Shown here: positions 11,259 through 27,586 of the stretch, piece by piece
How the letters are laid out: each line of letters opens with the position of its first letter
Position numbering within the stretch: the first letter of the stretch is position 1
IMG/VR virus record: IMGVR_UViG_2872698443_000002
Strand: one strand, 5' to 3'
From: a virus
Lineage: Duplodnaviria; Heunggongvirae; Uroviricota; Caudoviricetes
Length of the DNA stretch: 35,230 nt
Program-made: the position numbers and the translations under genes
The notes under the pieces: model-generated
Told to the model about the DNA's origin: nothing
Database searches by the model: none
The model's input: only the letters and a program-made list of their open reading frames with translations

Positions 11259-12302
11259 TCAGCTTCGTTTGCCCTTAAGTCCTAAGTCATAGGCTTCAAA
11301 ACGGATAACCTCTTCATCCAGCCAGTCATTCAGCTCCTGCAGTCGCTTTTGCAGGGGCATCAGTTCATTGCGGACGAAGACACGGCTCGCTTTTTCCACA
11401 TCCCCAAAGCCGCCAGTGTTGTTGGGAATGATGCCCATCATTTGCGGCGGTACGCGGTGAGCCGCCATCATGTCATCGCGGCTGACGTTCTTGATGTTCA
11501 GAAATTCATCCTTCGCCGCGACTTCCGACAACGGGATAATCTGAATGCCATCTTTTTTGCCGTTAGGCGAGTACATAAACAGGTTGCGGAAGTTGCCCGG
11601 TCCTTTAGCGCTTTTCATTGCCTTGCGGATGTTGTTCACATCCTCCTGGTTCTGTGCGGCGTCGGTCATGTACATGATGAAGCCTGCGTGGCTGCCGTTA
11701 ATGTAATACTTGCGGCGGAACAGCGTGGCGGATTCGTTGAGCAGAGCTGACGGAATGGCAGAAAGGTAACCCGGCAGACCATAAATCTCCTGGTTGATAT
11801 CCGGCTCCATCAGGTGGAAGACGTTACCTTTTGTGAACTGATACGGCTGTGTCGTCAGGCTGTATTGCACAAACCAGTATGTTTCAAGGTCAAGCCCGCG
11901 TCGGGTGTATTTTGCCAGTGCAGGCTCCAGCGAAATAACTTCACCAAAGCGGTTCGTGCGTTTCTCCAGGTAGGCGTTACCAAAAACCAGATAGTCCTGC
12001 ACAAAACGGGTAAATGCCTGCTGGCTGAGAAGGCGATGTGGAATATAGGTACTGCTGATAATGTCACGCTTAACACTGATCGGGGAGCTGTGGTGCACGG
12101 CGGCGCGGAAGGTGCGCGCCAGTCCGTCAAAGCTGATGGGCGGCTCATACCAGCGATCCATCTGTACGCATTCCACATAGTCCAGCAGTTCGCGGCGGTC
12201 CAGTACAGGAATGGGATCACCAAAGCTGAAAGCCTCCGCAACGGGTTTTTTAGTTTCTTCTGCAGTTACGGTTTCGCCTGGCGCGATATGTTCTTTCATC
12301 AA
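11259..12302 (-). CDS. Q: portal protein gpQ
   Basis: 347 aa; size, position next to cos and upstream of the terminase ATPase, and P2 gene order. Confidence 0.85.
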   Translation of the reverse strand: MMKEHIAPGETVTAEETKKPVAEAFSFGDPIPVLDRRELLDYVECVQMDRWYEPPISFDGLARTFRAAVHHSSPISVKRDIISSTYIPHRLLSQQAFTRFVQDYLVFGNAYLEKRTNRFGEVISLEPALAKYTRRGLDLETYWFVQYSLTTQPYQFTKGNVFHLMEPDINQEIYGLPGYLSAIPSALLNESATLFRRKYYINGSHAGFIMYMTDAAQNQEDVNNIRKAMKSAKGPGNFRNLFMYSPNGKKDGIQIIPLSEVAAKDEFLNIKNVSRDDMMAAHRVPPQMMGIIPNNTGGFGDVEKASRVFVRNELMPLQKRLQELNDWLDEEVIRFEAYDLGLKGKRS

Positions 12303-14065
12303 AAAATCTCCACAATATTGCTGGTATTGGCGGACTCGCCCTGCAGCGGTTCGTTAAACAGTGCGTGCATGGTTGCCCATGCCAGATCGGCATGGCTGGC
12401 TTCTTCGCTGCGGCTGGCTTCGTAGGTCGGGCGGTTGCCACTGGCGGTGGTGGCGCGACGGATTGCCATGAATGACTGCGCAATGTCGGTATGTCCGGCG
12501 TCAAACTCCAGACGGCGGTGGCTGATAATGTCGTAGGCCTTGAGTACCAGGGCGTTTTTAACGTTGGGGTTGTAGACAAACTCCCGGACGGCAGGAAAGA
12601 ACGCTTTCACGTTCTCGTAAACCCCGTGACCGACGCCGGTTGAGTCGATACCGATATAGGTCACGTTGTACTGTTCGGTCAGTTTTTTGATGGCGTCAGC
12701 CTGGGCGCGGAAGTCCATCCCGCGCCACTGGTGACGCTCAAGAATGCGAAACTTACCGCCTGGCACGGCTGGCGGTGCCACCACCACGCATCCGGCGCTG
12801 TCGCCGTTCTGCGTACCTTTTGCCGGGTCATAACCGATCCACACTTCGCGCCAGCCAAACGGGCGCAGGGCCAGTGCATGAAAGTCGGTCCAGACTTCCC
12901 AGCTGTCCACCATGCACGCCTGCAATTCGCTGAGCGGGAACACAGATGCGAGATCGTCAACGAACTCGCACATCAGCAGGTTCTGGTATTCGTCCGGGCT
13001 GTACTCCATGCGCAACTGGTCGAGGTCGAACAGGTTACAGCCGCCGCGTACCGCATCTTCCACGGTGACTATCTGGCGGTATTGCCCGTCTGCGCACAGC
13101 AGGCCGGGGGCCAGATTGCTGTGGGACAGGTCGATGTCCACCTTATCGGCTTTGTTGCGCCCACGGTTGAACAGCGCACCGGACCAGAACGGATAAGCAC
13201 TGTGTGTCAGGCTGGATGGCGTGGAAAAATAGGTCTGTCGCCATTTCTTGTGAATAGCCATACCGGAAGCCACTTTGCGCAGCTCCTGGAATTTCGGTAT
13301 CCAGAAATATTCATCCAGATACAGGTTGCCGTGGTAACTCTGGGCCGTGCGGGCATTGGTGCCGAGGAAATACAGTGTGGCCCCGTTGGGAAGCACCATC
13401 GGATCGCCTTTCAGCTCCACCTCCACTTCTTTGGCGAAGTCGATGATGTACTGCTTAAAGACGTGAGCCTGTGCCTTACTGGCAGAAAGGAAAATCTGGT
13501 TACGTCCGGTAAGCAGGGCGTCAATCAGGGCTTCACGGGCAAAGTAAAAGGTCGCACCGATCTGGCGTGACTTCAGCAGGTTGCGGATGCGGTTGGTTTT
13601 TCCGGCTTCCCACCAGTGGCGCTGATAGTTGAACATGGAGGAATGGAAGATTTCTTCCAGCTTCTCAATCTGTTCATCGGTGAAAACGTTCTTTTCCGGC
13701 TGACGACGCGGGCCTTTGTTGCGGTTGGCGACGTTAGGGTTTAAGTCGGCTTCGTTGCCGCCATTGTTAAACTTGCCGATCCGCGCGTGGCGCTCCGACT
13801 GGCGCGCCAGCAAGTCAATCTCTTTGAAATCTTTCCCTTCTTTGTGCTCCTTCATAATGAGCTGGCAGTAGCGTGCGGCGGTGGTGAGCTGCATCTGATC
13901 CAGCGGCCCATAGTCACCCCACTTGTCGCGTTTTTTCCAGCTGTGAACGGTTGCAACTTTCTCGCCCAGCATTTCAGCAATGCGGGCTACGCGATATCCC
14001 TGAAAGTACAGCAGCATGGCCTGCCGACGGGGATCGAGATCTGCGGATGTCAGTGTGGTGTTCAT
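12299..14065 (-). CDS. P: terminase large (ATPase) subunit gpP
   Basis: 588 aa, overlaps the Q start by 4 nt. Length and position match P2 gpP. Confidence 0.9.
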   Translation of the reverse strand: MNTTLTSADLDPRRQAMLLYFQGYRVARIAEMLGEKVATVHSWKKRDKWGDYGPLDQMQLTTAARYCQLIMKEHKEGKDFKEIDLLARQSERHARIGKFNNGGNEADLNPNVANRNKGPRRQPEKNVFTDEQIEKLEEIFHSSMFNYQRHWWEAGKTNRIRNLLKSRQIGATFYFAREALIDALLTGRNQIFLSASKAQAHVFKQYIIDFAKEVEVELKGDPMVLPNGATLYFLGTNARTAQSYHGNLYLDEYFWIPKFQELRKVASGMAIHKKWRQTYFSTPSSLTHSAYPFWSGALFNRGRNKADKVDIDLSHSNLAPGLLCADGQYRQIVTVEDAVRGGCNLFDLDQLRMEYSPDEYQNLLMCEFVDDLASVFPLSELQACMVDSWEVWTDFHALALRPFGWREVWIGYDPAKGTQNGDSAGCVVVAPPAVPGGKFRILERHQWRGMDFRAQADAIKKLTEQYNVTYIGIDSTGVGHGVYENVKAFFPAVREFVYNPNVKNALVLKAYDIISHRRLEFDAGHTDIAQSFMAIRRATTASGNRPTYEASRSEEASHADLAWATMHALFNEPLQGESANTSNIVEIF

Positions 14066-14111
14066 GGCACAAACCTACAGCCTTGAATGAAGGCTTTCCC
14101 CGCCTGCGGTT

Positions 14112-14129
14112 TGTGTGGTTGTCGGTACA
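14112..14129. promoter_or_regulatory. Ogr-type late-promoter activator site (TGT-N12-ACA) in the divergent P/O intergenic region
   Basis: TGTgtggttgtcggtACA, centred about 87 bp upstream of the O start and 55 bp upstream of the P start. The partial dyad TGT-N12-ACA is the P2 late-promoter element. Confidence 0.5.
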
Positions 14130-14207
14130 AATACCGCGCATTGTTTCACTGCCCCCATCACCGCAACCATAAGGCTCCAGTAAGTTTTTTCTAACGGAGC
14201 ACGGCTC

Positions 14208-15041
14208 ATGACAGTGAAAGCAAAGCGTTTTCGCATCGGGGTGGAAGGTGCCACCACCGACGGACGCGAAATCCAGCGTGAATGGCTGGAACAGATGGCA
14301 GCCAGCTACAACCCGGCGGTGTATACCGCGCTGATTAACCTTGAGCACATCAAGTCTTATCTGCCGGACAGCACCTTTAACCGCTACGGCAAGGTGACGG
14401 CGCTGTTTGCTGAAGAAATCACGGAAGGTCCGCTGGCAGGCAAGATGGCGCTGTATGCCGACGTTGAGCCAACGGAGTCCCTGGTGGAACTGGTGAAAAA
14501 AGGCCAGAAATTATTCACCTCTATGGAAGTCAGCCCGAAGTTCGCTGATACGGGCAAAGCCTACCTGGTCGGCCTGGCTGCCACTGATGACCCTGCCAGT
14601 CTGGGTACGGAAATGCTGACATTCAGCGCCAGTGCAGCCCATAACCCGCTGGCAAACCGCAAGCAGAATCCTGCCAATCTCTTTACCGCTGCAGAGGAAA
14701 CGGTGATCGAACTGGAAGAAATCCAGGACGACAAACCGTCCCTGTTTGCCCGCGTCACGGCGCTGTTTACCAAAAAAGAGCAGTCCGATGACGCCCGGTT
14801 CTCTGATGTGCATAAGGCCGTGGAGCTGGTCGCCACTGAGCAGCAAAACCTGAGCGCACGCACCGAAAAATCCCTGTCTGAGCAGGAAGAACGCCTGTCT
14901 GAGCTGGAGACTGCCCTGCAGGCACAGCAAACCGCCTTTAACGAACTGGTGGACAAGCTGAGTCATGAAGACAGCCGCCAGGACTACCGCCAGCGTGCAA
15001 CAGGCGGTAACGCCCCCGCTGACACTCTGACCAATTGCTGA
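14208..15041 (+). CDS. O: capsid scaffolding protein gpO
   Basis: 277 aa, first gene of the rightward head operon; acidic, coiled-coil-like C-terminal half. Confidence 0.85.
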   Translation: MTVKAKRFRIGVEGATTDGREIQREWLEQMAASYNPAVYTALINLEHIKSYLPDSTFNRYGKVTALFAEEITEGPLAGKMALYADVEPTESLVELVKKGQKLFTSMEVSPKFADTGKAYLVGLAATDDPASLGTEMLTFSASAAHNPLANRKQNPANLFTAAEETVIELEEIQDDKPSLFARVTALFTKKEQSDDARFSDVHKAVELVATEQQNLSARTEKSLSEQEERLSELETALQAQQTAFNELVDKLSHEDSRQDYRQRATGGNAPADTLTNC

Positions 15042-15057
15042 TGGAGCACAAAACCCG

Positions 15058-16116
15058 ATGAAGAAGAATACCCGCTTTGCTTTTAACGCTTACCTGCAGC
15101 AGCTGGCGCGTCTGAACGGTGTGGCAGTTGAAGAACTGTCCAGCAAGTTCACCGTGGAGCCGTCTGTACAGCAGACGCTGGAAGACCAGATCCAGCAGTC
15201 CGCCGCTTTCCTGACGCTGATTAACGTCACGCCAGTGACTGAGCAGTCCGGTCAGCTGCTGGGGTTGGGTGTTGGCAGCACCATTGCCGGAACCACTGAT
15301 ACCACCGCGAAAGAGCGTGAACCTGTCGATCCGACGCTGATGGTCGATGTGGAATACAAATGCGAGCAGACCAACTTTGACACGGTGCTGACCTACGCGA
15401 AGCTGGACTTGTGGGCGAAATTTCAGGATTTCCAGGTGCGTATCCGTGACGCCATCGTGAAACGTCAGGCACTGGACCGCATCATGATCGGCTTTAACGG
15501 CGTGAAGCGTGCGAAAACCTCCAACCGTAGTGAAAACCCGCTGCTGCAGGATGTGAACAAAGGCTGGCTGCAGAAAATCCGTGAGGATGCACCGGATCAC
15601 GTCATGGGCAGCACCACCACAGGCGGTGAAACCACACCGGGCGCGGTGAAAGTCGGTAAAGGTGGCGAATATGCCAACCTGGACGCCGTGGTGATGGATG
15701 CCGTCAATGAGCTTATCGACGTGGTCTACCAGGACGATGACGATCTGGTGGTGATTTGCGGTCGTGAGCTGTTGTCTGACAAGTATTTCCCACTGGTCAA
15801 CAAAGAGCAGGAAAACAGTGAAAAACTCGCTGCCGATATGATCATCAGTCAGAAACGCATGGGTGGCCTGCAGGCCGTGCGTGCGCCGTTCTTCCCGCCG
15901 AATGCACTGCTGATCACCCGTCTGGATAACTTGTCCATCTACTGGCAGGAAGACACCCGCCGCCGTTCAGTTATCGACAACCCGAAACGTGACCGGATTG
16001 AAAACTTTGAATCCGTTAATGAAGCCTATGTGGTTGAGGACTACCGCTGCGCCGCACTGGTGGAAAACATCCAGATTGGTGATTTCAGCGCCGCCGCAGC
16101 AGAAGCCGGAGCGTAA
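15058..16116 (+). CDS. N: major capsid protein gpN
   Basis: 352 aa, follows the scaffold gene; size matches P2 gpN. Confidence 0.9.
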   Translation: MKKNTRFAFNAYLQQLARLNGVAVEELSSKFTVEPSVQQTLEDQIQQSAAFLTLINVTPVTEQSGQLLGLGVGSTIAGTTDTTAKEREPVDPTLMVDVEYKCEQTNFDTVLTYAKLDLWAKFQDFQVRIRDAIVKRQALDRIMIGFNGVKRAKTSNRSENPLLQDVNKGWLQKIREDAPDHVMGSTTTGGETTPGAVKVGKGGEYANLDAVVMDAVNELIDVVYQDDDDLVVICGRELLSDKYFPLVNKEQENSEKLAADMIISQKRMGGLQAVRAPFFPPNALLITRLDNLSIYWQEDTRRRSVIDNPKRDRIENFESVNEAYVVEDYRCAALVENIQIGDFSAAAAEAGA

Positions 16117-16119
16117 ACC

Positions 16120-16770
16120 ATGAGCCTGAGTCCCGCACGGCAGCATCGCCTGCGCGTTCAGGCTGAACAGGCCGCCCGTGAGGGCGGCAGTGTTCGCCAC
16201 GCGTCGGGCTATGACCTGATGCTGCTGCAGCTGGCGGAAGACCGCCGCCGTCTCAAGGGCGTTCAGTCCACGGTGAAAAAAGCGGAAATAAAGGTGGAGC
16301 TGCTGCCGAAATATGCCGCCTGGGCGGAGGGCGTCCTGGCTGCCGGAGGCGCTCAACAGGATGACGTGCTGATGTACGTGATGCTGTGGCGCATTGATGC
16401 CGGAGATTATGCCGGGGCGCTGGAGATCGGGCGTCATGCCCTGCGTCATGGCTGGGTGATGCCTCTGGGTAACCGCAACGTGCAGACCGTGCTGGCAGAG
16501 GAAATGGCAGATGCAGCGCAGAGCGCAATGCTTGCCGCTACCGGCTTTGATGCCGATCTGTTGCTGCAGACGCTGGAGCTGACAGACGGTCTGGATATGC
16601 CGGACCAGTCACGGGCGCGTCTGCATAAAGCGATTGGCGCTGTCCTGAGTGAAAGCAATCCGGCTTCCGCCCTTAATCATCTCAACCATGCGTTACAGCT
16701 CGATCCCCGCTGTGGCGTGAAAAAAGACAAACAGCAGCTGGAGCGCAGACTGCGCAATGACAGCCGCTGA
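16120..16770 (+). CDS. M: terminase small (endonuclease) subunit gpM
   Basis: 216 aa, immediately after the capsid gene, as P2 gpM. Confidence 0.8.
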   Translation: MSLSPARQHRLRVQAEQAAREGGSVRHASGYDLMLLQLAEDRRRLKGVQSTVKKAEIKVELLPKYAAWAEGVLAAGGAQQDDVLMYVMLWRIDAGDYAGALEIGRHALRHGWVMPLGNRNVQTVLAEEMADAAQSAMLAATGFDADLLLQTLELTDGLDMPDQSRARLHKAIGAVLSESNPASALNHLNHALQLDPRCGVKKDKQQLERRLRNDSR

Positions 16771-16865
16771 CAGAACGTGCCCCCGCGCACGGGCGGCACG
16801 GGGTGGCGAAAGGCATAGCCACATCAAAATCCCGTCCACCGCCCTCTATTTCAGGAGAAAGCAGC

Positions 16866-17330
16866 ATGAAGTTTGTTGCGCCAGAACAGGCACCGGAACA
16901 GGCGGAAATCATCAGGAATACGCCGTTCTGGCCTGATGTGGACCTGTCGGAGTTTCGCAGTGTCATGCGCACTGACGGCACGGTGACGCAGCCGCGTTTA
17001 AAGCAGGTTGCGCTGTCGGCAATTTCGGAGGTCAACGCAGAGCTGTATGAGTTTCGCAGACGTCAGCAGATGCTGGGGTATGCGTCGCTGGCTGAGGTTC
17101 CGGCGGAACAGCTGGACGGCAAAAGTGAGCGCATTCAGCATTATTTCAACGCGGTTTACTGCTGGGCACGCGCCATGCTCAACGAGCGTTATCAGGACTA
17201 TGACGCCACGGCATCCGGTGTGAAGCGGGGCGAGGAACTGGCGGAAGCAAGCGGTGATTTGTGGCGTGACGCCCGCTGGGCCATCAGCCGGGTGCAGGAT
17301 GCGCCGCACTGCACAGTGGAGCTTATCTGA
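16866..17330 (+). CDS. L: head completion/stabilisation protein gpL
   Basis: 154 aa from ATG 16866, preceded by CAGGAGAAAG. The ORF-track start at 16803 is a GTG further upstream. Confidence 0.8.
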   Translation: MKFVAPEQAPEQAEIIRNTPFWPDVDLSEFRSVMRTDGTVTQPRLKQVALSAISEVNAELYEFRRRQQMLGYASLAEVPAEQLDGKSERIQHYFNAVYCWARAMLNERYQDYDATASGVKRGEELAEASGDLWRDARWAISRVQDAPHCTVELI

Positions 17331-17533
17331 TGAAAGTGCGTGCGTATCAGTATGACACGGTGGACGCGCTTTGCTGGCGTCATTACGGGCGCACGCAGGG
17401 TGTCACGGAGCAGGTACTGAAGGCAAATCCGGGGCTTGCCGAATACGGCCCCTTTTTACCTCACGGGCTGCAGGTGGAGCTGCCGGACATACCGACAACC
17501 ACCACCGTGCAGACTGTCCAGCTATGGGACTGA
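17330..17533 (+). CDS. X: tail protein gpX
   Basis: 67 aa, same size and position as P2 X; its ATG overlaps the L stop (TGATG). Confidence 0.8.
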   Translation: MKVRAYQYDTVDALCWRHYGRTQGVTEQVLKANPGLAEYGPFLPHGLQVELPDIPTTTTVQTVQLWD

Positions 17534-17536
17534 ATT

Positions 17537-17752
17537 ATGACGCTTGAGCGAATCAGCGCCTTTATCACGTATTGCATCGCCGTCGTGCTGGCCTGGCTGG
17601 GCGATTTGTCCATCAAGGATGCCTCAACGCTGGGCGGCCTGATGATTGGTGTGCTGATGCTGGCTATCAACTGGTACTACAAACACAAAGCCTACCAGCT
17701 TCTGCGCGACGGGCAGATCTCGCGGGAGGACTATGAATCCATCAATCGTTAA
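17537..17752 (+). CDS. putative holin
   Basis: 71 aa with two hydrophobic helices and a charged C-terminus, immediately upstream of the endolysin. Confidence 0.6.
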   Translation: MTLERISAFITYCIAVVLAWLGDLSIKDASTLGGLMIGVLMLAINWYYKHKAYQLLRDGQISREDYESINR

Positions 17753-18245
17753 ACGCTGCCTTGTCGGGACCGTGCTGGCTATTGCTGCCACGCTGCCGGG
17801 TTTTCAGCAGCTTCACACCTCCGTGGAGGGGCTGAAACTGATTGCCGATTATGAAGGTTGTCGTCTGCAGCCGTATCAGTGCAGCGCGGGTGTCTGGACC
17901 GACGGCATTGGTAATACGTCGGGCGTCATTCCCGGCAAAACCATTACGGAGCGACAGGCAGCAGAAGGGCTGATCTCCAACGTGCTGCGTGTGGAGCGGG
18001 CGCTGGAAAGGTGTGTGAAGCAACAGCCGCCGCAGAAGGTGTATGACGCTGCGGTGTCGTTTGCCTTCAACGTGGGAACGGGCAATGCCTGCAGTTCCAC
18101 GCTGGTGAAATTGCTCAATCAGCGGCGCTGGGCGGATGCGTGCCGACAGTTGCCGCGCTGGGTTTATGTGAAAGGTGTTTTTAATCAGGGGCTGGATAAC
18201 CGCCGTGCGCGGGAGATGGCCTGGTGCTTACAGGGAGCAAACTGA
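17733..18245 (+). CDS. endolysin, phage lysozyme (GH24-like) with N-terminal signal-anchor-like segment
   Basis: 170 aa. Contains the lysozyme-type E...D...T region (LKLIADYEGCRLQPYQCSAGVWTDGIGNT). N-terminal hydrophobic stretch VGTVLAIAATLPGF suggests a SAR-type endolysin. Confidence 0.85.
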   Translation: MNPSIVKRCLVGTVLAIAATLPGFQQLHTSVEGLKLIADYEGCRLQPYQCSAGVWTDGIGNTSGVIPGKTITERQAAEGLISNVLRVERALERCVKQQPPQKVYDAAVSFAFNVGTGNACSSTLVKLLNQRRWADACRQLPRWVYVKGVFNQGLDNRRAREMAWCLQGAN

Positions 18246-18246
18246 A

Positions 18247-18624
18247 ATGAAAAAGAAAGTAATCAGCGGGCTGTTTCTGATGTTATGGATGGCGCTGTTG
18301 ATCGCAGCAATGGTGTATCCGCAGGGGATTTTTCCGGTACTGGCAGCGTCCGGTGTCTGGGTAGCCTGTCTGCTGACATGGGCGGTAATTCCGGTAGCAC
18401 TGGCTGCGTTAATTAAGAACGGCCCGCTCTGGCAGGAGTTGAGGGCATCTTTGCTAAAGACCATTACCCGAAAAGAAAACGTATTTATCAGCTGGGTGAT
18501 GCGATTGCTGATTGTCGTAAGTTTCGCCTGGACGGGGTGGGCTATTACCCTGGTCTTTTATCTGCTGACCGTTATTGCCTTCTGGATGATCCGTAATCAG
18601 ATTGCGCAACAGGTAGCAGCATGA
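18247..18624 (+). CDS. lysA: LysA-like lysis-timing membrane protein
   Basis: 125 aa from ATG 18247; three or four hydrophobic helices; position matches P2 lysA. Confidence 0.6.
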   Translation: MKKKVISGLFLMLWMALLIAAMVYPQGIFPVLAASGVWVACLLTWAVIPVALAALIKNGPLWQELRASLLKTITRKENVFISWVMRLLIVVSFAWTGWAITLVFYLLTVIAFWMIRNQIAQQVAA

Positions 18625-19049
18625 ACCGGTTGCTGCTGGTTGTGCTGGCGTTATTACTGGCGGCGCTGGGCTGGCAGACGTGGCGGCTGGCTGATGCCAG
18701 CCAGACCATCAGCACGCAGGCAGACGAGCTTCGGAGCAAAAGCCAGGCACTGGCAAAGAGCAACAGCCAGCTTATCAGCCTGTCCATTCTGACTGAAACC
18801 AATAACCGGGAGCAGGCGCGGCTCTATGCCGAAGCAGAACAGACCAGTGTACTGCTGAGACAACGACAACACCGGATTGAGGAACTGAAACGTGAGAACG
18901 AGGATTTACGCCGCTGGGCTGATACTCCTTTGCCTGCTGACATTATCCGGCTGCGGGAACGCCCCACACTCACCGGAGGTGCAGCTTACCGTCAGTGGTT
19001 GTCCGCGAGTGACGCCGTGTCGGCTGGGACAGGCAGCGCCGCGCACTAA
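18621..19049 (+). CDS. lysB: Rz-like inner-membrane spanin (LysB)
   Basis: 142 aa with an N-terminal transmembrane helix and a coiled-coil-like periplasmic region; contains the out-of-frame nested lysC. Confidence 0.7.
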   Translation: MNRLLLVVLALLLAALGWQTWRLADASQTISTQADELRSKSQALAKSNSQLISLSILTETNNREQARLYAEAEQTSVLLRQRQHRIEELKRENEDLRRWADTPLPADIIRLRERPTLTGGAAYRQWLSASDAVSAGTGSAAH

Positions 19050-19182
19050 CGGTGGCCTGAACGCGTTGCTGGATGAAACGGAGGCCGCCTGGGCGGTCTG
19101 TGCAGACAAAGTGGACATGATTATTGCGTGTCAGGAGCGAAACAGTGAACAAACCACAATCCCTGCGCCACGCCCTCAATAA
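18892..19182 (+). CDS. lysC: Rz1-like outer-membrane lipoprotein spanin (LysC), nested in lysB in another frame
   Basis: 96 aa with a lipobox (LTLSGC) and proline-rich periplasmic segment; starts inside lysB in a different frame and extends past its end. Confidence 0.7.
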   Translation: MRTRIYAAGLILLCLLTLSGCGNAPHSPEVQLTVSGCPRVTPCRLGQAAPRTNGGLNALLDETEAAWAVCADKVDMIIACQERNSEQTTIPAPRPQ

Positions 19183-19576
19183 AGCGGTGCCTTATGTCCG
19201 CAATAACCCGGACAAACTGCATCTGTTTGTGGATAACGGTTCGCTGGTTGCCACGGGGGCCAGCTCCATGTCATGGGAGTACCGCTATACCCTGAACGTG
19301 GTGATAGAGGATTTCAGCGGCGACCAGAATCTGCTGATGGCCCCGGTTTTACTGTGGCTTCGGGATAACCAGCCCGATGCCATCAATAACCCGGCGTTAC
19401 GGGAAAAGCTATTCACCTTTGAGGTGGATATTTTGCGCAACGATGTCTGTGATATCAGCCTTAACCTGCAATTGACGGAACGTGTGCTGGTCAGTACTGA
19501 CGGCAGTGTGTCGAGCGTTGAAGCTGTAGCAGAACCCGATGAACCTGAAGAAATGTGGACGGTGAAACGTGGCTGA
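19145..19576 (+). CDS. R: tail completion protein gpR
   Basis: About 143 aa from GTG 19145 (VNKPQSLRHALN...); P2 gene order. Confidence 0.8.
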   Translation: MNKPQSLRHALNKAVPYVRNNPDKLHLFVDNGSLVATGASSMSWEYRYTLNVVIEDFSGDQNLLMAPVLLWLRDNQPDAINNPALREKLFTFEVDILRNDVCDISLNLQLTERVLVSTDGSVSSVEAVAEPDEPEEMWTVKRG

Positions 19577-20015
19577 ACTGCAGAAGGTGGACGACTGGCT
19601 GAGTGCCTTGCTGGCGAATCTGGAACCAGCCACGAGAAGCCGCATGATGCGCCAGCTGGCGCAGGAACTGCGCCGGACACAGCAGCAGAATATCAGGATG
19701 CAGCGCAATCCAGATGGCAGCAGCTATGAACCGCGCAGGGTAACAGCACGCAGCAAAAAAGGCCGCATCAAACGTCAGATGTTTGCAAAGTTGCGCACCA
19801 CAAAATACCTGAAAACTGCCGCCAGCGCCGACTCTGCCAGCGTACAGTTTGAAGGCAAGGTGCAGCGTATTGCCCGTGTTCACCATTACGGCCTGCGTGA
19901 TCGCGTCAGTCGCAAAGGACCGGAGGTCCGTTACGCAGAGCGCCGCCTGCTGGGTGTAAATGATGATGTTGAGGCAATGACCCGCGACATGATTCTGCAA
20001 TGGCTGGCGGGGTGA
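19569..20015 (+). CDS. S: tail completion / virion morphogenesis protein gpS
   Basis: 148 aa from GTG 19569; P2 gene order. Confidence 0.8.
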   Translation: MAELQKVDDWLSALLANLEPATRSRMMRQLAQELRRTQQQNIRMQRNPDGSSYEPRRVTARSKKGRIKRQMFAKLRTTKYLKTAASADSASVQFEGKVQRIARVHHYGLRDRVSRKGPEVRYAERRLLGVNDDVEAMTRDMILQWLAG

Positions 20016-20019
20016 TCTT

Positions 20020-20037
20020 TGTATCAGCACTGATACA
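20020..20037. promoter_or_regulatory. Ogr-type late-promoter site (TGT-N12-ACA, perfect palindrome TTGTATCAGCACTGATACAA) upstream of V
   Basis: TGTatcagcactgatACA, centred about 55 bp upstream of the V start codon. Confidence 0.5.
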
Positions 20038-20083
20038 AGTTGCAGCACTGCCGCCTTTCTTCCCCTGATGGCAACCTTTCCCT

Positions 20084-20662
20084 ATGAACGCACAATTAAC
20101 CGAAATCATGCGCCTTATCACCAACCTGATCCGCACAGGGGTAGTCACCGAAGTGGACAGGGAAAACTGGCTTTGCCGGGTGAAAACGGGCGAGCTTGAA
20201 ACCAACTGGATCAGCTGGCTGACGCTGCGTGCCGGGAATGCCCGTACATGGTGGCGACCATCGGAAGGTGAGCAGGTGGTGCTGCTGAGTCTGGGCGGCA
20301 ATCTGGAAACCGCCTTTGCGCTGCCCGCTGTCTATTCGAATCAGTTCGCACCACCGTCGACGTCGGCGGACGCCTGCGTGACAGAACATCCTGACGGTGG
20401 CTGGTTTGAATACGAACCCGCCACCGGGCGCTGGTATGTCAGGGGCATCAAATCAATGGTCATTGAGGCTGCTGACAACATCACCATGAAAACCAGTGAG
20501 TTTGTACTGGAGGCTGACCGCACGCGCATTAACAGCGAAGTGGTGATCAATGGTGGCGTTACCCAGGGCGGCGGAGCGATGAGTTCTAACGGGATCGTGG
20601 TTGATGCGCATCAGCATACTGGCGTCCTGAAAGGCGGCGATACAACCGGAGGCCCGGTATGA
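20084..20662 (+). CDS. V: baseplate spike protein gpV
   Basis: 192 aa; first gene after the palindromic late-promoter element; P2 gene order V-W-J-I-H-G. Confidence 0.85.
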   Translation: MNAQLTEIMRLITNLIRTGVVTEVDRENWLCRVKTGELETNWISWLTLRAGNARTWWRPSEGEQVVLLSLGGNLETAFALPAVYSNQFAPPSTSADACVTEHPDGGWFEYEPATGRWYVRGIKSMVIEAADNITMKTSEFVLEADRTRINSEVVINGGVTQGGGAMSSNGIVVDAHQHTGVLKGGDTTGGPV

Positions 20663-21018
20663 CGCTTTATAGCGGGATGAACAATACCAGCGGCAAAGTC
20701 ATTACTGATATTGATCATCTGCGCCAGTCGGTGCGGGACATTCTGCTGACACCGCAGGGTAGCCGTATTGCCCGCCGGGAATATGGTTCCCTGCTGTCGG
20801 CACTGATAGATCAGCCACAAAATCCGGCATTACGCCTGCAGGTCATGTCGGCAGTGTATGTGGCGCTGAGTCGCTGGGAGCCACGGTTGACGCTGGATTC
20901 CATCACCATCAACAGCAATTTTGACGGTTCAATGGTGGTGGAGCTGACCGGGCGGCGGAATAACGGTGTGCCTGTGTCCCTTTCCGTATCAACAGGAGCA
21001 GAGAATGGCAGTGATTGA
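20659..21018 (+). CDS. W: baseplate protein gpW (gp25-like)
   Basis: 119 aa; size and order as P2 W. Confidence 0.85.
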   Translation: MTLYSGMNNTSGKVITDIDHLRQSVRDILLTPQGSRIARREYGSLLSALIDQPQNPALRLQVMSAVYVALSRWEPRLTLDSITINSNFDGSMVVELTGRRNNGVPVSLSVSTGAENGSD

Positions 21019-21913
21019 CCTTTCGCAGTTGCCTGCACCGCAGATTGTGGATGTGCCGGACTTTGAGACGCTGCTTGCCGAACGCAAGGCAGAATTTGTG
21101 GCGCTTCATCCGAAAGATGAGCAGGAAGCAGTGATCCGCACGCTGGAACTGGAATCTGAACCCGCCACTAAATTGTTGCAGGAGAACGCTTACCGTGAGT
21201 TGCTTCTGCGCCAGCGTATTAACGAAGCCGCGCAGGCGGTGATGGTGGCTTACGCGATGGGCGGCGATCTTGACCAGCTCGCTGCCAACTACAACGTGAC
21301 ACGCCTGACGGTGACGCCTGCTGATAATGATGCTGTGCCGCCCGTTGCAGCTGTGATGGAAAGCGATGAAGCGTTGCGCCTGCGTGTGCCTGCAGCCTTT
21401 GAAGGGCTTTCTGTTGCGGGGCCAACTGCAGCTTATGAATTTCATGCCCGAAGCGCCGACGGTCGGGTGGCGGATGCCAGTGCAACCAGCCCGGCACCTG
21501 CAGAGGTGGTGCTGACTGTCCTTAGCCGCGAAGGCGATGGAACTGCAGAAAAAGACCTGCTGGACGTGGTGGAAAAAGCTCTGAACAGTGAGAACGTCCG
21601 CCCGGTGGCTGACCGTCTTACGGTTCGCAGCGCAGAAATCATCCCGTATCGCGTGGAAGCCACCATTTTTCTCTATCCGGGACCGGAAGCAGAGCCGGTA
21701 ATGGCAGCGGCAAAAGCCAGTCTGCAGAAGTACATTGCCAGCCAGACGAGGCTTGGTCGGGATATTCGCCGTAGCGCCATCTTTGCTGCTCTGCATGTTG
21801 AGGGTGTTCAACGTGTGGAACTGGCTTCTCCGCTGGCGGATGTGGTCCTGAACAAAACACAGGCGGCATCATGTACGCAGTGGAGCGTAACCAACGGAGG
21901 AACGGATGAATAG
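21005..21913 (+). CDS. J: baseplate protein gpJ
   Basis: 302 aa from ATG 21005 (RBS AGGAG 6 nt upstream), overlapping the W end. Confidence 0.85.
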   Translation: MAVIDLSQLPAPQIVDVPDFETLLAERKAEFVALHPKDEQEAVIRTLELESEPATKLLQENAYRELLLRQRINEAAQAVMVAYAMGGDLDQLAANYNVTRLTVTPADNDAVPPVAAVMESDEALRLRVPAAFEGLSVAGPTAAYEFHARSADGRVADASATSPAPAEVVLTVLSREGDGTAEKDLLDVVEKALNSENVRPVADRLTVRSAEIIPYRVEATIFLYPGPEAEPVMAAAKASLQKYIASQTRLGRDIRRSAIFAALHVEGVQRVELASPLADVVLNKTQAASCTQWSVTNGGTDE

Positions 21914-22511
21914 TCTGCTGCCACCGGGTTCAACTTCACTGGAGCGCCGACTGGCGCAAACCTGTAGCGGGATTTCTGATTTGCAGGTACCGCTGCGTGA
22001 CTTGTGGAATCCGGCTACCTGTCCGGTCAGCTTCCTGCCTTATCTCGCCTGGGCGTTCTCTGTGGATCGCTGGGACGAGGGCTGGACAGAAAGCGTCAAA
22101 CGCCAGGTAGTGAAGGATGCTTTTTATATTCATCAGCATAAAGGAACCACCAGTGCCGTGCGGCGGGTGGTGGAACCGTTCGGATTCCTGATCCGCATTA
22201 TTGAGTGGTGGCAGACCGGAGAAACACCGGGCACGTTTCGCCTGGATATCGGCGTGCAGGACCAGGGCATCACTGAAGATACCTATCTGGAACTTGAGCG
22301 ACTGATAAGCGATGCCAAACCATGTAGCCGCCACATGATCGGCATGTCCATCAATCTGCAGACCAGCGGCCCGCATTGGGTGGGAGCCGCCAGCTATCTT
22401 GGCGAAGAAATCACGATCTATCCGTATATCAACGAAACGATTATTTCCGGTGGCACCGCGCATGAAGGCGGGGCGGTCCATGTTATTGACACAATGAGAG
22501 TGAATCCATGA
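21906..22511 (+). CDS. I: baseplate/tail protein gpI
   Basis: 201 aa, overlaps the J end and the H start. Confidence 0.85.
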   Translation: MNSLLPPGSTSLERRLAQTCSGISDLQVPLRDLWNPATCPVSFLPYLAWAFSVDRWDEGWTESVKRQVVKDAFYIHQHKGTTSAVRRVVEPFGFLIRIIEWWQTGETPGTFRLDIGVQDQGITEDTYLELERLISDAKPCSRHMIGMSINLQTSGPHWVGAASYLGEEITIYPYINETIISGGTAHEGGAVHVIDTMRVNP

Positions 22512-24031
22512 GCACAAAATTTTATACCCTGCTGACGGATATTGGCGCGGCGAAACTTGCCAGCGCCGCCGCGCTCGGTGTGCCGCTAAAAATTACCCAT
22601 ATGGCGGTCGGCGATGGCGGTGGAGTATTGCCAACGCCGGACGCAAAGCAGACGGCACTGGTAAATGAGAAACGCCGGGCTGCGCTGAATATGCTTTATA
22701 TCGACCCGCAGAACAGCAGCCAGATTATTGCCGAACAGGTGATCCCTGAAAACGAGGGCGGTTGGTGGATACGTGAAGTGGGCTTGTTTGATGAGTCCGG
22801 GGCATTGATTGCCGTGGGCAACTGCCCGGAAAGCTATAAGCCGCAACTGGCTGAAGGTAGCGGGCGCACTCAGACCGTGCGCATGGTGCTGATTACCAGC
22901 AGCACGGACAATATCACCCTGAAAATCGACCCTGCTGTAGTGCTGGCAACCCGCAAGTATGTGGATGACAAGGCACTGGAGCTGAAGGTGTACGCGGATG
23001 ATCAGATGGCAAAACATCTTGCCGCACCGGACCCGCATTCACAGTACGCGCCAAAAGCCAGCCCGACATTTACCGGAACCCCCAAAGCGCCAACGCCAGC
23101 GGCGGGGAATAATACCACGCAGGTTGCGACCACTGCGTTTGTACAGGCGGCACTGACGGCCCTTATTAATGGTGCGCCAGCCACGCTGGACACGCTGAAA
23201 GAAATAGCCGCAGCCATTAACAATGATCCGAATTTCAGTACCACCATTAACAATGCGCTGGCACTAAAAGCACCGTTGTCGAGTCCGGCACTCACCGGAA
23301 CGCCAACAGCCCCCACGGCGGCGCAGTCGGTCAACAATACACAGATTGCCACTACGGCTTTTGTGAAATCGGCGATTGCAGGAATGGTGGGTTCTGCACC
23401 TGCTGCACTGGATACACTGAACGAACTGGCGGCGGCACTGGGGAATGATCCGAACTTTGCCACGACAATGCTTAATGCGCTGGCAGGTAAACAACCGCTG
23501 GACAATACGCTTACCAATTTGAGTGGAAAGGATGTGGCTGGTCTTCTCGCATACCTTGGTTTGGGAGAAGGTGCTCCAGCTATTGGCGTTCCGTTCTTCT
23601 GGCCGTCCGCCGCAATGCCAGATACCGTAATCGAAAGCTGGTCCGGCATGGTGTTTTTGAAGTTCAACGGCGCGAAATTCTCTGCCACTGATTACCCTGT
23701 GCTGGCGAAAGTGTTTCCTTCGCTGGTATTACCTGAAGCCCGCGGTGATTTCATTCGTATCTGGGATGATGGTCGTGGTGTAGATAGTGGACGTGGATTA
23801 CTTAGTACGCAGTCTGACCTGATGAAACAATTTACTTTGCAATACTACGGTCCTTCTGCTGGTACTGGAACAAGAATGGTTTTCGCCCTCCAGAGTAATG
23901 CGAACGGCATATATACGAGTGGTATTAGTCAGAATGATGGTAGTGGCACCGCTGCGGCTTTTAATGTACCAGGCGGCACCGAAACACGCCCACGTAACAT
24001 TGCATTCAACTTTTTAGTAAGGGCTAAATAA
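22508..24031 (+). CDS. H: tail fibre protein gpH (constant N-terminal part plus currently expressed variable C-terminal cassette)
   Basis: 507 aa. Contains two tandem ~57-aa repeats (...SPTFTGTPKAPT...NDPNF / ...SPALTGTPTAPT...NDPNF). A gix-like crossover site lies inside the gene at 23544..23569. Confidence 0.85.
   Translation: MSTKFYTLLTDIGAAKLASAAALGVPLKITHMAVGDGGGVLPTPDAKQTALVNEKRRAALNMLYIDPQNSSQIIAEQVIPENEGGWWIREVGLFDESGALIAVGNCPESYKPQLAEGSGRTQTVRMVLITSSTDNITLKIDPAVVLATRKYVDDKALELKVYADDQMAKHLAAPDPHSQYAPKASPTFTGTPKAPTPAAGNNTTQVATTAFVQAALTALINGAPATLDTLKEIAAAINNDPNFSTTINNALALKAPLSSPALTGTPTAPTAAQSVNNTQIATTAFVKSAIAGMVGSAPAALDTLNELAAALGNDPNFATTMLNALAGKQPLDNTLTNLSGKDVAGLLAYLGLGEGAPAIGVPFFWPSAAMPDTVIESWSGMVFLKFNGAKFSATDYPVLAKVFPSLVLPEARGDFIRIWDDGRGVDSGRGLLSTQSDLMKQFTLQYYGPSAGTGTRMVFALQSNANGIYTSGISQNDGSGTAAAFNVPGGTETRPRNIAFNFLVRAK
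23544..23569. repeat. invertase crossover site, left (TTCTCGCATACCTTGGTTTGGGAGAA), inside H
   Basis: 26-bp imperfect dyad. It matches the reverse complement of the 25624..25649 site at 18 of 26 positions, including the central ACnTTGGTTT, and the codon phase is identical in both. Confidence 0.6.
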
Positions 24032-24624
24032 TGAAACCTGTTTTTGATAAAAATGGGCTGGCTACAGTGCCGGGTGATATGCGTTGTTTTTATTATGATG
24101 CAGTAACGTCTGAATATACTGGCTGGTCTGATGAATATATTAATACTGGTGTAAGTATGCCCGCCTGTTCCACTGGTATTGACCCGGGCGAATACATTCC
24201 GGGGAAAGTGGCAGTATTTACGGGTAAGGGATGGAGCCATGAAGAAGACCACCGCAATGAGACTGCTTACTCAATCGAAAATGGCGCAGCTGTTACAGTG
24301 GATTATATCGGTGCCATCAAAGACGCTTATGTCACGCTTTCACCGTTAACGCCATACGATAAATGGGATGGTGAGAAATGGGTGACAGATACTGAGGCAC
24401 AGCATAGTGCCTCAGTAGACGCGGCAGAAGCACAGCGCCAGTCGCTGATTGATGCTGCAATGGCTTCCATCAGTCTGATTCAACTGAAATTGCAGGCCGG
24501 GCGGAAGCTGACGCAGGCAGAAACAACCCGACTTAACGCCGTGCTGGATTACATTGACGCGGTGACGGCAACAGATACCAGCACCGCGCCGGATATCATC
24601 TGGCCTGAACAGCCGGAGGCGTAG
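24031..24624 (+). CDS. G: tail fibre assembly chaperone gpG (Tfa), expressed orientation
   Basis: 197 aa directly after H. Its C-terminus (...DYIDAVTATDTSTAPDIIWPEQPEA) resembles that of the convergent tfa copy. Confidence 0.8.
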   Translation: MKPVFDKNGLATVPGDMRCFYYDAVTSEYTGWSDEYINTGVSMPACSTGIDPGEYIPGKVAVFTGKGWSHEEDHRNETAYSIENGAAVTVDYIGAIKDAYVTLSPLTPYDKWDGEKWVTDTEAQHSASVDAAEAQRQSLIDAAMASISLIQLKLQAGRKLTQAETTRLNAVLDYIDAVTATDTSTAPDIIWPEQPEA

Positions 24625-25030
24625 GCCATTCAATATCTGGAGCACTGGAAATATCAACCATTTCCAGTGCGTCCAGATAATCAAACCAGGCGTTCAAAAG
24701 TGCTTCTTCATCTGGCTTGATGCGTTTGAGCGCCAGTCTTGTCCGTAGCATCTCTGTTTCCGATTTCACTTCTGATATCAGAAATACTTTTTTGACTTCC
24801 GCCTGATGCACCAATTCCTCATGGGTAGGCAGAGTGACATTCACCCAGGCAGGTCGACCTTTGACACTACCGAGTTCTTTTCCTTCCGGAGCCGGTTTCA
24901 TCCAGTATTTATCACGCTCTGAATCCGTCAGTTTAACGATATCGTCCGGCCATGTTCCGGCGGCGATATAGCCGTCTTTCATATCCAGAGGATAAAACGC
25001 CAACGTTGTGGCTGAGAAGCACATATCCAT
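24596..25030 (-). CDS. alternative tail fibre assembly chaperone (tfa'), silent orientation
   Basis: 144 aa, convergent with G with 3' ends overlapping; C-terminus (...DYLDALEMVDISSAPDIEWPTPP) is related to G. Confidence 0.7.
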   Translation of the reverse strand: MDMCFSATTLAFYPLDMKDGYIAAGTWPDDIVKLTDSERDKYWMKPAPEGKELGSVKGRPAWVNVTLPTHEELVHQAEVKKVFLISEVKSETEMLRTRLALKRIKPDEEALLNAWFDYLDALEMVDISSAPDIEWPTPPAVQAR

Positions 25031-25032
25031 AA

Positions 25033-25677
25033 TTAAAATCCTATCGCTAGCCAGGTGGTGGCGTTATTATCGGGAAGGAGCACTCTGTCTGATGTGTTGC
25101 TTAACACGCAAATCTGTGTGGCATTAAATCCGACATTCGTTATAGCATTAGCTGTCCACACTGATGTCGTTTGTCCGCCGCCCGGCGAAGACTCGCCGAC
25201 AAACAGTGGTGGTCTTGTGAAAGCCACCGGGAATTTTACGTAGACATCTGTTGGTGTAATCTCTGATAGCCCCCACTGTATAATCATGCCGGACGGTAAC
25301 TTCTGATATCCATTAGTTGACGGTGAACTACCAAAATCAGCAGGTAGCCCGCGCACCAAATCGGCATCAAGCCCTGACCCGGAACCATCAACCTGAAGCA
25401 GTTTTGTCAGTATTGCCTGCGCCGTTACCTGTTCTTCAAGAGCAAGACTTCCTCCTTTGTTTTGCAGATATACGTATTTTGCGGCACCGTCGACTTTAAA
25501 AGCGATAGCAAATTGTTTCTTCTGTTCATCATATGCCAGCCAAAGACTATCCTCTGGCCTGCCAGACTCAAACACGAAAGTCGAGAATCTGTTATCTGTC
25601 TTATCTCTCTTCAGGTTCAGTAATTCCGGTAAACCAACGTTTATGAAAATGCAGAGATAACGGCTAACTGGCATCAT
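25033..25677 (-). CDS. alternative tail-fibre variable C-terminal cassette (promoterless, silent orientation)
   Basis: Reading frame open through the crossover site. Sequence after the site (...IFINVGLPELLNLKRDK...) parallels H at its crossover (...LLAYLGLGEGAP...). The functional part is about 25033..25636; residues upstream of the site are read-through only. Confidence 0.65.
   Translation of the reverse strand: MMPVSRYLCIFINVGLPELLNLKRDKTDNRFSTFVFESGRPEDSLWLAYDEQKKQFAIAFKVDGAAKYVYLQNKGGSLALEEQVTAQAILTKLLQVDGSGSGLDADLVRGLPADFGSSPSTNGYQKLPSGMIIQWGLSEITPTDVYVKFPVAFTRPPLFVGESSPGGGQTTSVWTANAITNVGFNATQICVLSNTSDRVLLPDNNATTWLAIGF
25624..25649. repeat. invertase crossover site, right (TTCCGGTAAACCAACGTTTATGAAAA), gix/hix-like
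   Basis: Closely resembles Gin/Hin-family recombination sites (compare gix TTCCTGTAAACCGAGGTTTTGGATAA); inverted relative to the site in H; about 55 bp upstream of the invertase gene. Confidence 0.65.
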
Positions 25678-25704
25678 CCCCGGTTTTTATTCAGGGGATT
25701 GATC

Positions 25705-26271
25705 ATGCTTATTGGCTATGTACGCGTGTCAACAAATGACCAGAACACCGATTTGCAACGTAATGCACTGAACTGAGCGGGATGTGAGCGGATTTTTGAG
25801 GACAAAATCAGTGGCACTAAGTCCGACAGACCGGGACTGAAAAAACTGCTCAGGACATTATCGGCAGGTGACACTCTGGTTGTCTGGAAGCTGGACAGGT
25901 TGGGGCGCAGTATGCGGCATCTCGTTACGCTGATAGAAGAGCTGCGCCAGCGTGGCGTGAATTTCCGAAGCCTGACTGACAGTATTGATACCAGTACCCC
26001 AATGGGCCGTTTCTTTTTTCATGTCATGGGGGCCCTGGCTGAAATGGAGCGCGAACTGATAGTTGAACGTACCAGGGCGGGGCTGGCTGCAGCTCGCGCC
26101 AAAGGCAGAGTAGGTGGACGCCGTCCTAAGTTGATCACCGAACAGTGGGCACAGATTGGACGTTTACTCGAGGCCGGAGAATCAAGACAGCGTATTGCAC
26201 TGATTTTTGATGTAGGTGTTTCCACAATTTATAGAAAATTTCCGGCAAATAAGAGCAATGAATCCCCCTGA
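25705..26271 (+). pseudogene. Gin/Pin/Hin-family serine DNA invertase with in-frame TGA at codon 24
   Basis: MLIGYVRVSTNDQNTDLQRNALN-stop (TGA 25774..25776), then the same frame continues AGCERIFEDKISG...LVVWKLDRLGRS...FRSLTDSIDT...GRFFFHVMGALAEMERELIVERT... to 26271. This is a full-length invertase apart from the single stop, which falls where Gin/Hin have a Cys/Ser codon. Confidence 0.8.
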
Positions 26272-26319
26272 ATCAGCATTATGTTGATTATCCCTGCAAG
26301 CAGACAAATACCGTCATTT

Positions 26320-26337
26320 TGTATGAATAACGGTACA
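26320..26337. promoter_or_regulatory. Ogr-type late-promoter site (TGT-N12-ACA) upstream of FI
   Basis: TGTatgaataacggtACA, centred about 86 bp upstream of the FI start. Confidence 0.5.
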
Positions 26338-26413
26338 ACTGCGATTAGCTGTTTGTCAGGCACAATCACTTCAACATAGGGCGAAGCCTAATCCAATCAG
26401 GAGGTTCGCCACT

Positions 26414-27586
26414 ATGGCTCAGGATTACCACCACGGGGTGCGCGTTGTTGAAGTCAACGAAGGCACCCGATCCATTACCACGGTGAGCACCGCCATCGTG
26501 GGTATGGTCTGCACGGGCGATGATGCCGATGCAAAAATGTTTCCTCTTAATAAACCCGTGCTGATCACTGATGTGCTGACTGCCAGCGGTAAAGCGGGTG
26601 AGTCCGGTACTCTGGCCCGTTCGCTGGATGCCATCGCTGACCAGGCAAAACCCGTGACCGTTGTTGTGCGTGTGCCGCAGGGTGAAACGGAAGACGAAAC
26701 CACGACCAATATCATCGGCGCAGTGACTGCTGAAGGTAAAAAAACAGGTATGAAAGCCCTGTTATCTGCCCAGTCACAGCTCGGCGTTAAACCGCGCATT
26801 CTCGGCGTGCCAGGCCACGATAACAAAGCCGTTGCGACTGAGTTGCTGAGCGTGGCGCAAAGCCTGCGTGGGTTTGCTTACCTGTCAGCGTATGGCTGCA
26901 AGACGGTACAGGAGGCGATCACTTACCGTGAAAACTTCAGCCAGCGCGAAGGGATGCTGATCTGGCCTGACTTTACGGGCTGGGACACGGTGCTGAATGC
27001 CGAAGCAACGGCATATGCCACCGCCCGTGCGCTCGGTCTGCGCGCCAAAATTGATGAGCAGACCGGATGGCACAAAAGCCTGTCCAACGTGGGAGTGAAC
27101 GGTGTCACCGGAATTTCTGCTGATGTGTTCTGGGATCTGCAGGACCCGGCAACCGATGCAGGTCTGCTTAACCAGAACGACGTTACCACGCTTATCCGCA
27201 AAGACGGTTTCCGCTTCTGGGGTTCCCGCTGTCTGAGCGATGACCCGCTCTTTGCCTTCGAAAACTACACCCGCACGGCGCAGGTACTGATGGACACGAT
27301 GGCAGAAGCGCACATGTGGGCAGTGGACAAACCGCTGAATCCGTCGCTGGCCCGCGACATTATCGAAGGTATCCGCGCCAAAATGCGCAGCCTGGTCAGT
27401 CAGGGGTATCTCATTGGTGGTGATTGCTGGCTGGACGAGTCGGTGAACGACAAAGACACTCTGAAAGCCGGGAAACTCACTATCGACTACGACTACACGC
27501 CAGTGCCGCCACTTGAAAACCTGATGCTGCGTCAGCGCATCACCGATCAGTACCTGGTGAATTTCGCCAGCCAGGTCAGCGCGTAA
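26414..27586 (+). CDS. FI: contractile tail sheath protein gpFI
   Basis: 390 aa, first gene of the F operon; size as P2 FI. Confidence 0.9.

Follow-up and report, generated by a model that had tools for sequence, protein, structure and literature searches.

Late promoters of the P2-like phages

Phage P2 transcribes its late genes as four operons, from promoters (pP, pO, pV and pF, with the activator Ogr; Christie & Calendar 1983/1985) that have no -35 element and a weak -10 and that carry an activator site about 55 bp upstream of the transcription start (+1). Here we examine the same arrangement in a prophage sequence of 35,230 nucleotides, IMG/VR record IMGVR_UViG_2872698443_000002 (the window, by which we mean this whole stretch). 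Our subject is three TGT-N12-ACA dyads at the heads of its late operons, and above all the two genes whose start codons lie closest to them, P (the terminase large subunit) and V. In published descriptions of P2, TGT-N12-ACA is given as the consensus of the four late promoters, and the activator is said, in secondary citations, to bind at about -55, where contact with RNA polymerase's alpha subunit is needed; the genetics of rpoA109 are described there as well. In the P2 record (NC_001895) pO and pP share one activator site, at 3057-3087, and their transcripts start at 3127 (O) and 3016 (P). The pV site is at 10239-10266 and that of pF at 17555-17583, the pF starts being 17626-17628. The centres of these sites lie 55-58 bp from the starts mapped for pP, pO, pV and pF (57-59 bp for pF). 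The V transcript starts at 10308, the first base of the V ATG, and an introduction that cites Christie & Calendar (1985) counts P2 among the few known leaderless cases in Escherichia coli. The record of phage 186 is organized in the same spirit, with one site for the activator B (3798-3817) serving the divergent promoters p12 and pV, and another serving pJ.

The window is, on sequence grounds, a Fels-2-like member of the P2-like Peduoviridae, a prophage of Klebsiella. Positions 13000-21000 match Klebsiella and E. coli P2-like phages at 97-97.5% DNA identity (megablast), and its gpP has 97% identity with the protein of Fels-2, a phage of Salmonella, and 63% with the P2 protein (tblastn). The open reading frame map, with its Pfam matches, gives the late gene order of P2: four late operons, with P and O sharing a site. 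The V ATG lies 55.5 bp from its dyad centre, as it does in P2. There are differences, too. The P2 pP/pO and pF sites read TGT-N12-CCA, whereas the window dyads are full TGT-N12-ACA; in P2 the P message carries a leader of 23 nt, with GAGG as its Shine-Dalgarno sequence, so that the ATG is 79 bp from the site centre; and where the window has a gap of 68 bp between S and V, orf30 and a separate terminator come between S and pV in P2. Phage 186 resembles the window in its early region, in its shared p12/pV site and in having its S and V homologues adjacent with no inserted gene. It differs in the 23-nt leader of p12 (start 3753, ATG 3730) and in the degenerate right half-sites of its dyads. The closest named relatives are Fels-2 and SopEPhi (Felsduovirus, Salmonella), which share the 142-bp P/O and 68-bp S-V intergenic regions and the 55.5-bp distance from dyad to ATG at both P and V. 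The Fels-2 record has no annotated promoters, its dyad spacers differ, and its FI dyad lies 81.5 bp from the ATG against 85.5 bp in the window.

The window also encodes a candidate activator of its own, a protein of 72 amino acids in the Ogr/B/Pag family. It carries the zinc finger motif CX2CX22CX4C, which is kept in the relatives we compared, and is 78% identical to the Fels-2 protein, 63% to 186 B and 54% each to P2 Ogr and PSP3 Pag. The sequence-only reading that preceded this work had called the promoters Ogr-dependent. As a statement about sites for an Ogr/B-family activator this holds up well; as a name it is loose, since the activator is nearer to the Fels-2 and 186 proteins than to Ogr itself.

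Our reading, which we regard as highly probable, is that the dyads are binding sites of this Ogr/B/Pag-type activator, that they serve four late promoters of one shared geometry, and that the P and V transcripts have no leader. By homology with P2 and 186, the 72-residue zinc-finger protein would occupy the TTGT-N12-ACAA dyads about 55 bp upstream of each +1 and, if the P2 mechanism applies, would recruit the host sigma-70 RNA polymerase through its alpha subunit to promoters with no -35 and a weak -10. The dyad between P and O would act in both directions, giving four promoters (for P-Q, O...S, V...G and FI...D) from three dyads. Each would consist of a dyad, 34-35 bp, an nAnnnT hexamer, 6 nt and then the +1. 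At O and FI this +1 would fall some 30 nt before an ATG with a Shine-Dalgarno sequence. At P and V it would be the A of the ATG, and ribosomes would read these first cistrons from messages that have no leader.

Three dyads for four promoters

The sequence-only reading had placed TGT-N12-ACA elements at 14112, 20020 and 26320, and a pattern search of the window finds all three exactly there (Table 1). They sit upstream of the P-Q, O-S, V-G and FI-D operons, with P and O diverging from one of them, in the same places as the activator sites annotated in P2 and 186. Since the P2 and 186 records both annotate sites shared between divergent promoters, three dyads for four promoters is the known architecture.

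Could the dyads be chance matches to a pattern of low information, with no regulatory role? The bare count is what such a reading would predict. TGT-N12-ACA occurs 7 times in the window against an expectation of 9.2, and 86 of 100 shuffled sequences contain at least 7. The count being at chance level, the significance of the dyads rests on their position and conservation, not on their number. The extended form TTGT-N12-ACAA is more discriminating. It has three matches in the whole window, exactly these sites, where 0.73 are expected, and only 4 of 100 shuffles reach three. A position weight matrix built from 74 sites of relatives, partly circular in that near-identical relatives of the window are among those sites, gives the three window sites 27.7, 25.3 and 21.1 bits, the P/O dyad being the best match in the window at 27.7, and the next match 12.5. 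The annotated P2 and 186 sites, with CCA or a degenerate sequence as the right half-site, for that reason score poorly with it (1-6 bits); the matrix is lineage-specific and does not serve as a validation.

What disposes of chance is position and conservation. Scans of IMG/VR with gpP, gpV and gpFI brought in only relatives 90-100% identical, a set suited to fine-scale footprinting and not to depth, and the more distant phages were taken individually from a phage collection. The P/O intergenic region is represented by 49 distinct IMG/VR variants, with identity down to 84%. In these the substitutions fall in the spacer, and TGTA and CACAAAC, the half-sites, are the same throughout; all 49 have the P ATG 55.5 bp from the centre of the dyad, without a single indel between dyad and ATG. 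The V gene gives a second comparison. Across 80 loci with V proteins 97-100% identical, at least 10 unrelated types of upstream DNA precede the gene. Several of the types have no similarity to the end of S, and in every one the centre of a perfect TGT-N12-ACA lies 54.5-56.5 bp from the V ATG. By chance, a dyad within that 3-bp range would be expected at about 8e-4 per context. Upstream of FI, all 65 distinct sequences carry a perfect TGT-N12-ACA, 78.5-85.5 bp from the ATG. Conserved position, constant half-sites and variable spacers point to three dyads that are functional as activator sites of late promoters. Set beside the P2 and 186 sites, the matrix scores and the extended pattern, they leave the chance reading hardly credible.

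The same spacing holds further afield. From the V dyad centre to the V ATG it is 55.5 bp in SopEPhi and in Yersinia 06.16-2, 56.0 bp in Aeromonas LPM4 (with an N13 spacer), 57.0 bp in Burkholderia phiX216 (ATG at 239 of the compared stretch) and 57.5 bp in Gegevirus. In Mannheimia PHL101, P88 and ESSI-2 we saw no clear TGT-N12/13-ACA at the expected place, and these three are left out of the generalization.

Some further matches belong here as observations in their own right. A fourth TGT-N12-ACA, which the sequence-only reading did not list, lies at 14054-14071, across the P ATG and 58 bp from the P/O dyad. We considered it as a second activator site of the sort found in P4 late promoters and rejected it: in many relatives it reads TGG...ACG, and we take it to be a chance match. 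The 12.5-bit match is a near-dyad, TTGCGTCATTCTCGCTACAA, at 33053-33070, inside the 3' end of D and about 260 bp upstream of the activator gene. No site in the D region is among the top matches of a Fels-2 scan with the lineage matrix, and the near-dyad is probably due to chance. In 186 the strongest match to the lineage site model (17.9 bits, TTGTATGGGATTACACACAA) falls at 29576-29593, just upstream of orf97, and not at an annotated B-protein site.

Geometry and predicted transcription starts

All four window promoters have a -10-like hexamer 34-35 bp after the ACA of the dyad. A consensus scan found no sigma-70 consensus promoter in 13900-14300 or 19800-20300; there are only hexamers of the form nAnnnT. 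The hexamer TAGCCT of P2 pP and 186 p12 follows the dyad at 34 bp and precedes the annotated start by 6 nt, and the window +1 positions in Table 1 come from applying this rule of dyad, 34 bp, hexamer and 6 nt. The predicted divergent starts of P and O are then about 111-112 bp apart, as they are in P2 (3016 and 3127) and in 186 (3753 and 3865). The hexamers themselves are well kept. That of P has T1, A2 and T6 invariant in the 49 variants, in which it reads TAGGTT, TATGTT or TAGGCT; (C/G)AACAT is found at the corresponding position upstream of FI in most of the divergent relatives; and an nAnnnT hexamer, on our reading, occupies -12 to -7 in all the V upstream types.

Table 1. Dyads, predicted promoter elements, hairpin and genes of the late region, and the activator gene, in window coordinates
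Feature	Position	Strand	Sequence or remark
Dyad common to the divergent P and O promoters	14111..14130 (core 14112-14129)	both directions	TTGT-N12-ACAA; core TGTGTGGTTGTCGGTACA
Dyad of the V promoter	20019..20038 (core 20020-20037)		core TGTATCAGCACTGATACA; 9-bp arms
Dyad of the FI promoter	26319..26338 (core 26320-26337)		core TGTATGAATAACGGTACA
P promoter hexamer	14072..14077	-	TAGGTT; 34 bp after dyad; aligns with TAGCCT of P2 and 186
Predicted P +1	14065 (+/-2 nt)	-	A of the P ATG; seventh nucleotide after hexamer; no leader
O promoter hexamer	14165..14170	+	AACCAT; predicted +1 about 14177 (+/-2); leader about 31 nt with GGAG Shine-Dalgarno
V promoter hexamer	20072..20077	+	CAACCT; 34 bp after dyad, 6 nt before ATG; predicted +1 20084, no leader
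FI promoter hexamer	26372..26377	+	CAACAT; 34 bp after dyad; predicted +1 about 26384 (+/-2); leader about 30 nt with CAGGAGG Shine-Dalgarno
Long RNA hairpin	20002..20061 (stem 20002-20055)	+	dyad at tip, GC-rich base, then UUUCUU; possible O-operon terminator or 3' hairpin, uncertain
Q	11259-12302	-	
P (terminase large subunit)	12299-14065	-	start M1, ATG at 14065; Pfam Terminase_5
O	14208-15041	+	ATG at 14208
S	19569-20015	+	
V	20084-20662	+	ATG at 20084
FI (tail sheath operon)	26414-27586	+	ATG at 26414
Late-gene activator, Ogr/B/Pag family, 72 aa	33320-33538	+	PF04606 Ogr_Delta, E 1.5e-20

The sequence-only reading had also sorted the dyads into two spacing classes, with centres 86 to 88 bp from the O and FI starts and about 55 bp from those of P and V. 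The distances are correct (P 55.5, V 55.5, O 87.5 and FI 85.5 bp) and the classes are real. At P and V the distance is fixed; at FI it ranges over 78.5-85.5 bp, and at O it is 87.5 bp in the window against 95 bp in P2. A fixed spacing at P and V beside a variable one at O and FI is just what leader-free and leader-containing transcripts, respectively, would predict.

Messages predicted to begin at the AUG

The sequence-only reading explained the short distance in one of two ways: the P and V promoters have very short leaders, or the proteins start at downstream methionines, M17 in P and M9 in V. The first of these has fared well for both genes, and at its limit, a leader of zero length; the second has not. 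On the geometry, the P and V mRNAs most likely begin exactly at the AUG, without a leader. An ATG stands at the predicted +1 in every relative we read through, and these span several genera. Among the 49 variants there is no conserved Shine-Dalgarno sequence before the P ATG, and there is nothing resembling one upstream of V in the window. The one candidate at P, an AGG, lies inside the hexamer and reads ATG (as TATGTT) in 21 of the 49. Like the classic leaderless mRNAs from mobile elements of E. coli (lambda cI, P2 gene V and Tn1721 tetR), the P and V messages would start on the A of the AUG and have no Shine-Dalgarno sequence; the classic cases differ in having mapped 5' ends, where those of the window are predicted.

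Alignment of the P upstream regions shows how the window and P2 differ. Between the annotated +1 and the P ATG, phages P2, 186, PSP3, EtG and Vimunumvirus have a 23-nt block that includes GGCGAGG. Exactly that block is missing from the window and from Fels-2, Gegevirus, Yersinia 06.16-2, Ralstonia RsoM1USA and Burkholderia phiE202. Every phage of this alignment keeps the proximal ACA, the TA...T hexamer and the P ATG. In KS14 (Burkholderia) and a Pseudomonas phage the ATG is exactly 57.0 bp from the centre of a TGT-N13-ACA. A leaderless P therefore appears, from such comparisons, to be common in the Peduoviridae, unlike the situation in P2 and 186 themselves. We found no report of a leaderless terminase in P2-like phages in the literature we searched.

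Another reading has P transcription begin somewhere between a few and about 15 nt upstream of its ATG, from some other -10, with the AGG (at -11 to -9) as a weak Shine-Dalgarno sequence. The window does have that AGG, 8 nt before the ATG, and a start placed by geometry is uncertain by about 2 nt either way, as the 57-59 bp of P2 pF illustrates. Against this, the AGG belongs to the conserved TAnnnT hexamer and is lost to ATG in those 21 variants; there is no other conserved -10 between dyad and hexamer; the dyad would lie at about -40, unlike any mapped late promoter of P2 or 186; and the same arrangement of dyad, hexamer and ATG is seen in phages of GC-rich Burkholderia, Ralstonia and Pseudomonas, always with the ATG at the predicted +1. 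We consider a short leader on P rather improbable.

Leaderless P and V remain our preferred reading, and several considerations weigh against it. To the chance-level count of the bare pattern and the partial circularity of the matrix must be added that geometry alone places the predicted +1 of Fels-2-like phages, to within about 2 nt either way, and that P2 pF starts 57-59 bp from the centre of its annotated site. Were transcription to begin 1-3 nt upstream, there would be a very short leader in place of none, and with a start further upstream the AGG of the window could serve as a weak Shine-Dalgarno sequence. Leaderless translation is, besides, generally inefficient in enterobacteria. Activator binding and dependence are read from sequence and homology. 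The analysis establishes the sites and the constancy of their spacing; for the window phage we infer the exact 5' ends, the dependence on the activator and the translation of leaderless messages.

The first ATG as the true start

The alternative of downstream starts would give P and V ordinary leaders and make their longer frames annotation artefacts, with translation beginning at M17 and M9. Both methionines are present in the window and in Fels-2, and the first ATGs do have no good Shine-Dalgarno sequence, although the same is true of M17 and M9. The proteins tell a different story. The alignment of gpP with P2 gpP begins at residue 3, the Pfam Terminase_5 match covers residues 11-68, and DPRRQA (residues 11-16) is invariant in all the variants and across genera while residues 2-10 vary. 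M17 of P is Leu in Gegevirus, a 91%-identical relative, and Ala in P2; M9 of V is Ala in P2 and absent from 186. Downstream starts would also leave unexplained the fixed 55.5 +/- 1 bp from dyad to first ATG across unrelated upstream DNA. We find them very unlikely. With N-termini that align with those of P2 gpP and gpV, the first ATG is, on this comparison, the true start of both proteins.

Deposited annotations are not always in agreement with the dyad. KS14 gp35 and the terminase of the Pseudomonas phage OQ658368 have annotated GTG starts 36 nt and 21 nt, respectively, upstream of the dyad-spaced ATG. In phiX216 the annotated TTG start of GP19 (gpV) is 105 nt upstream of it, and in Yersinia 06.16-2 a small and apparently spurious open reading frame, vBYenM06162_019 (359-454 of the compared stretch), has been drawn over the P promoter. 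In these four phages the ATG is 56.5-57 bp from the dyad centre. The deposited start codons have likely been set too far upstream because the true ATG has no Shine-Dalgarno sequence.

The palindrome after S

The V dyad, described in the sequence-only reading as a perfect 20-bp palindrome, is not quite that: 18 of its 20 positions are self-complementary, with 9-bp arms around a non-palindromic CA centre. (In one relative a C-to-T change at the centre, TGTATCAGTACTGATACA, makes the 18-mer perfectly palindromic.) It lies just downstream of S, and it was suggested that it might instead be a stem-loop ending the S transcript. Is it the tip of a structure that ends or stabilizes the O-operon transcript, in addition to the activator site or in place of it?

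There is something to be said for such a hairpin. The RNA of 20002-20055 folds at -25.9 kcal/mol, with a GC-rich base and UUUCUU directly after it, and Fels-2, whose 3' arm differs, forms this hairpin too (-31.7 kcal/mol, z -2.11). The arms are at least 6-8 bp where the dyad directly follows S (the window, Fels-2/SopEPhi and Aeromonas LPM4) and, with one exception, 3-5 bp elsewhere, and the P2 record has its O-operon terminator right after S. Other observations count against it. The z score of the window fold is only -1.16, a consensus terminator scan made no call, and the U run of Fels-2 begins 4 nt past the stem. The palindrome alone folds to only -7.9 kcal/mol, with no U run after it. Covariation lends no support, there being only 13 window-type variants with few substitutions.

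Termination as the sole function is excluded by at least nine relatives in which the dyad keeps the same distance to V downstream of an unrelated, often oppositely oriented insert, and not of S. What is conserved is the TGT/ACA and the spacing to the ATG, not extended palindromy. Termination is thus not the conserved role of the V dyad, because the dyad-V distance is kept where the upstream DNA is unlike the end of S. As an alternative to the promoter, the terminator falls away; as an added role, where the dyad adjoins S, it is possible, and the stem-loop role as a whole we rate as a tentative proposal, less likely than not.

The S-V junction is itself a highly variable place. At least nine unrelated sequences, most of them AT-rich, take the place of all the DNA as far as the V ATG, promoter included (the equivalent of window 20016-20083), and it is the V start codon that bounds this variable module.

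A neighbouring invertase gene

Upstream of the FI dyad, a gene for a DNA invertase of the Hin/Gin/Cin type (25705-26271) adjoins inverted tail-fibre genes (24596-25677, - strand). Its identity to the Fels-2 invertase is 85%, but an in-frame TGA (25774-25776) takes the place of Fels-2 Cys24; the gene is therefore probably a pseudogene, and the tail-fibre switch may be locked in this prophage.

What the arrangement means

The late promoters of the window are known P2/186 biology in a new member of the group, with a leaderless P as a modest new variant. How far that variant extends is a wider question, and our confidence in the general answer is evenly divided. It would say that a leaderless first cistron is usual for the P and V operons across the Peduoviridae, with the +1 on an invariant ATG 55-57 bp from the dyad; that the 23-nt leader of P2 and 186 is a lineage-specific insertion; that the KS14, Pseudomonas and phiX216 starts are misplaced; and that a V dyad adjacent to S may double as a hairpin ending the O-operon transcript.

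For prophages that are widespread in Klebsiella, Salmonella and E. coli, the analysis supplies a regulatory annotation of three sites, four promoters, predicted +1 positions and start codons, and it accounts for the 55-bp spacing without invoking mis-called genes. The fixed distance from dyad to ATG at P and V, set against the variable one at O and FI, provides a simple rule by which late promoters can be found, and start codons corrected, in P2-like phages. A further suggestion is that the family as a whole has conserved the leaderless translation of low-copy proteins, the terminase and the baseplate spike, and that this is no quirk of P2 gene V.

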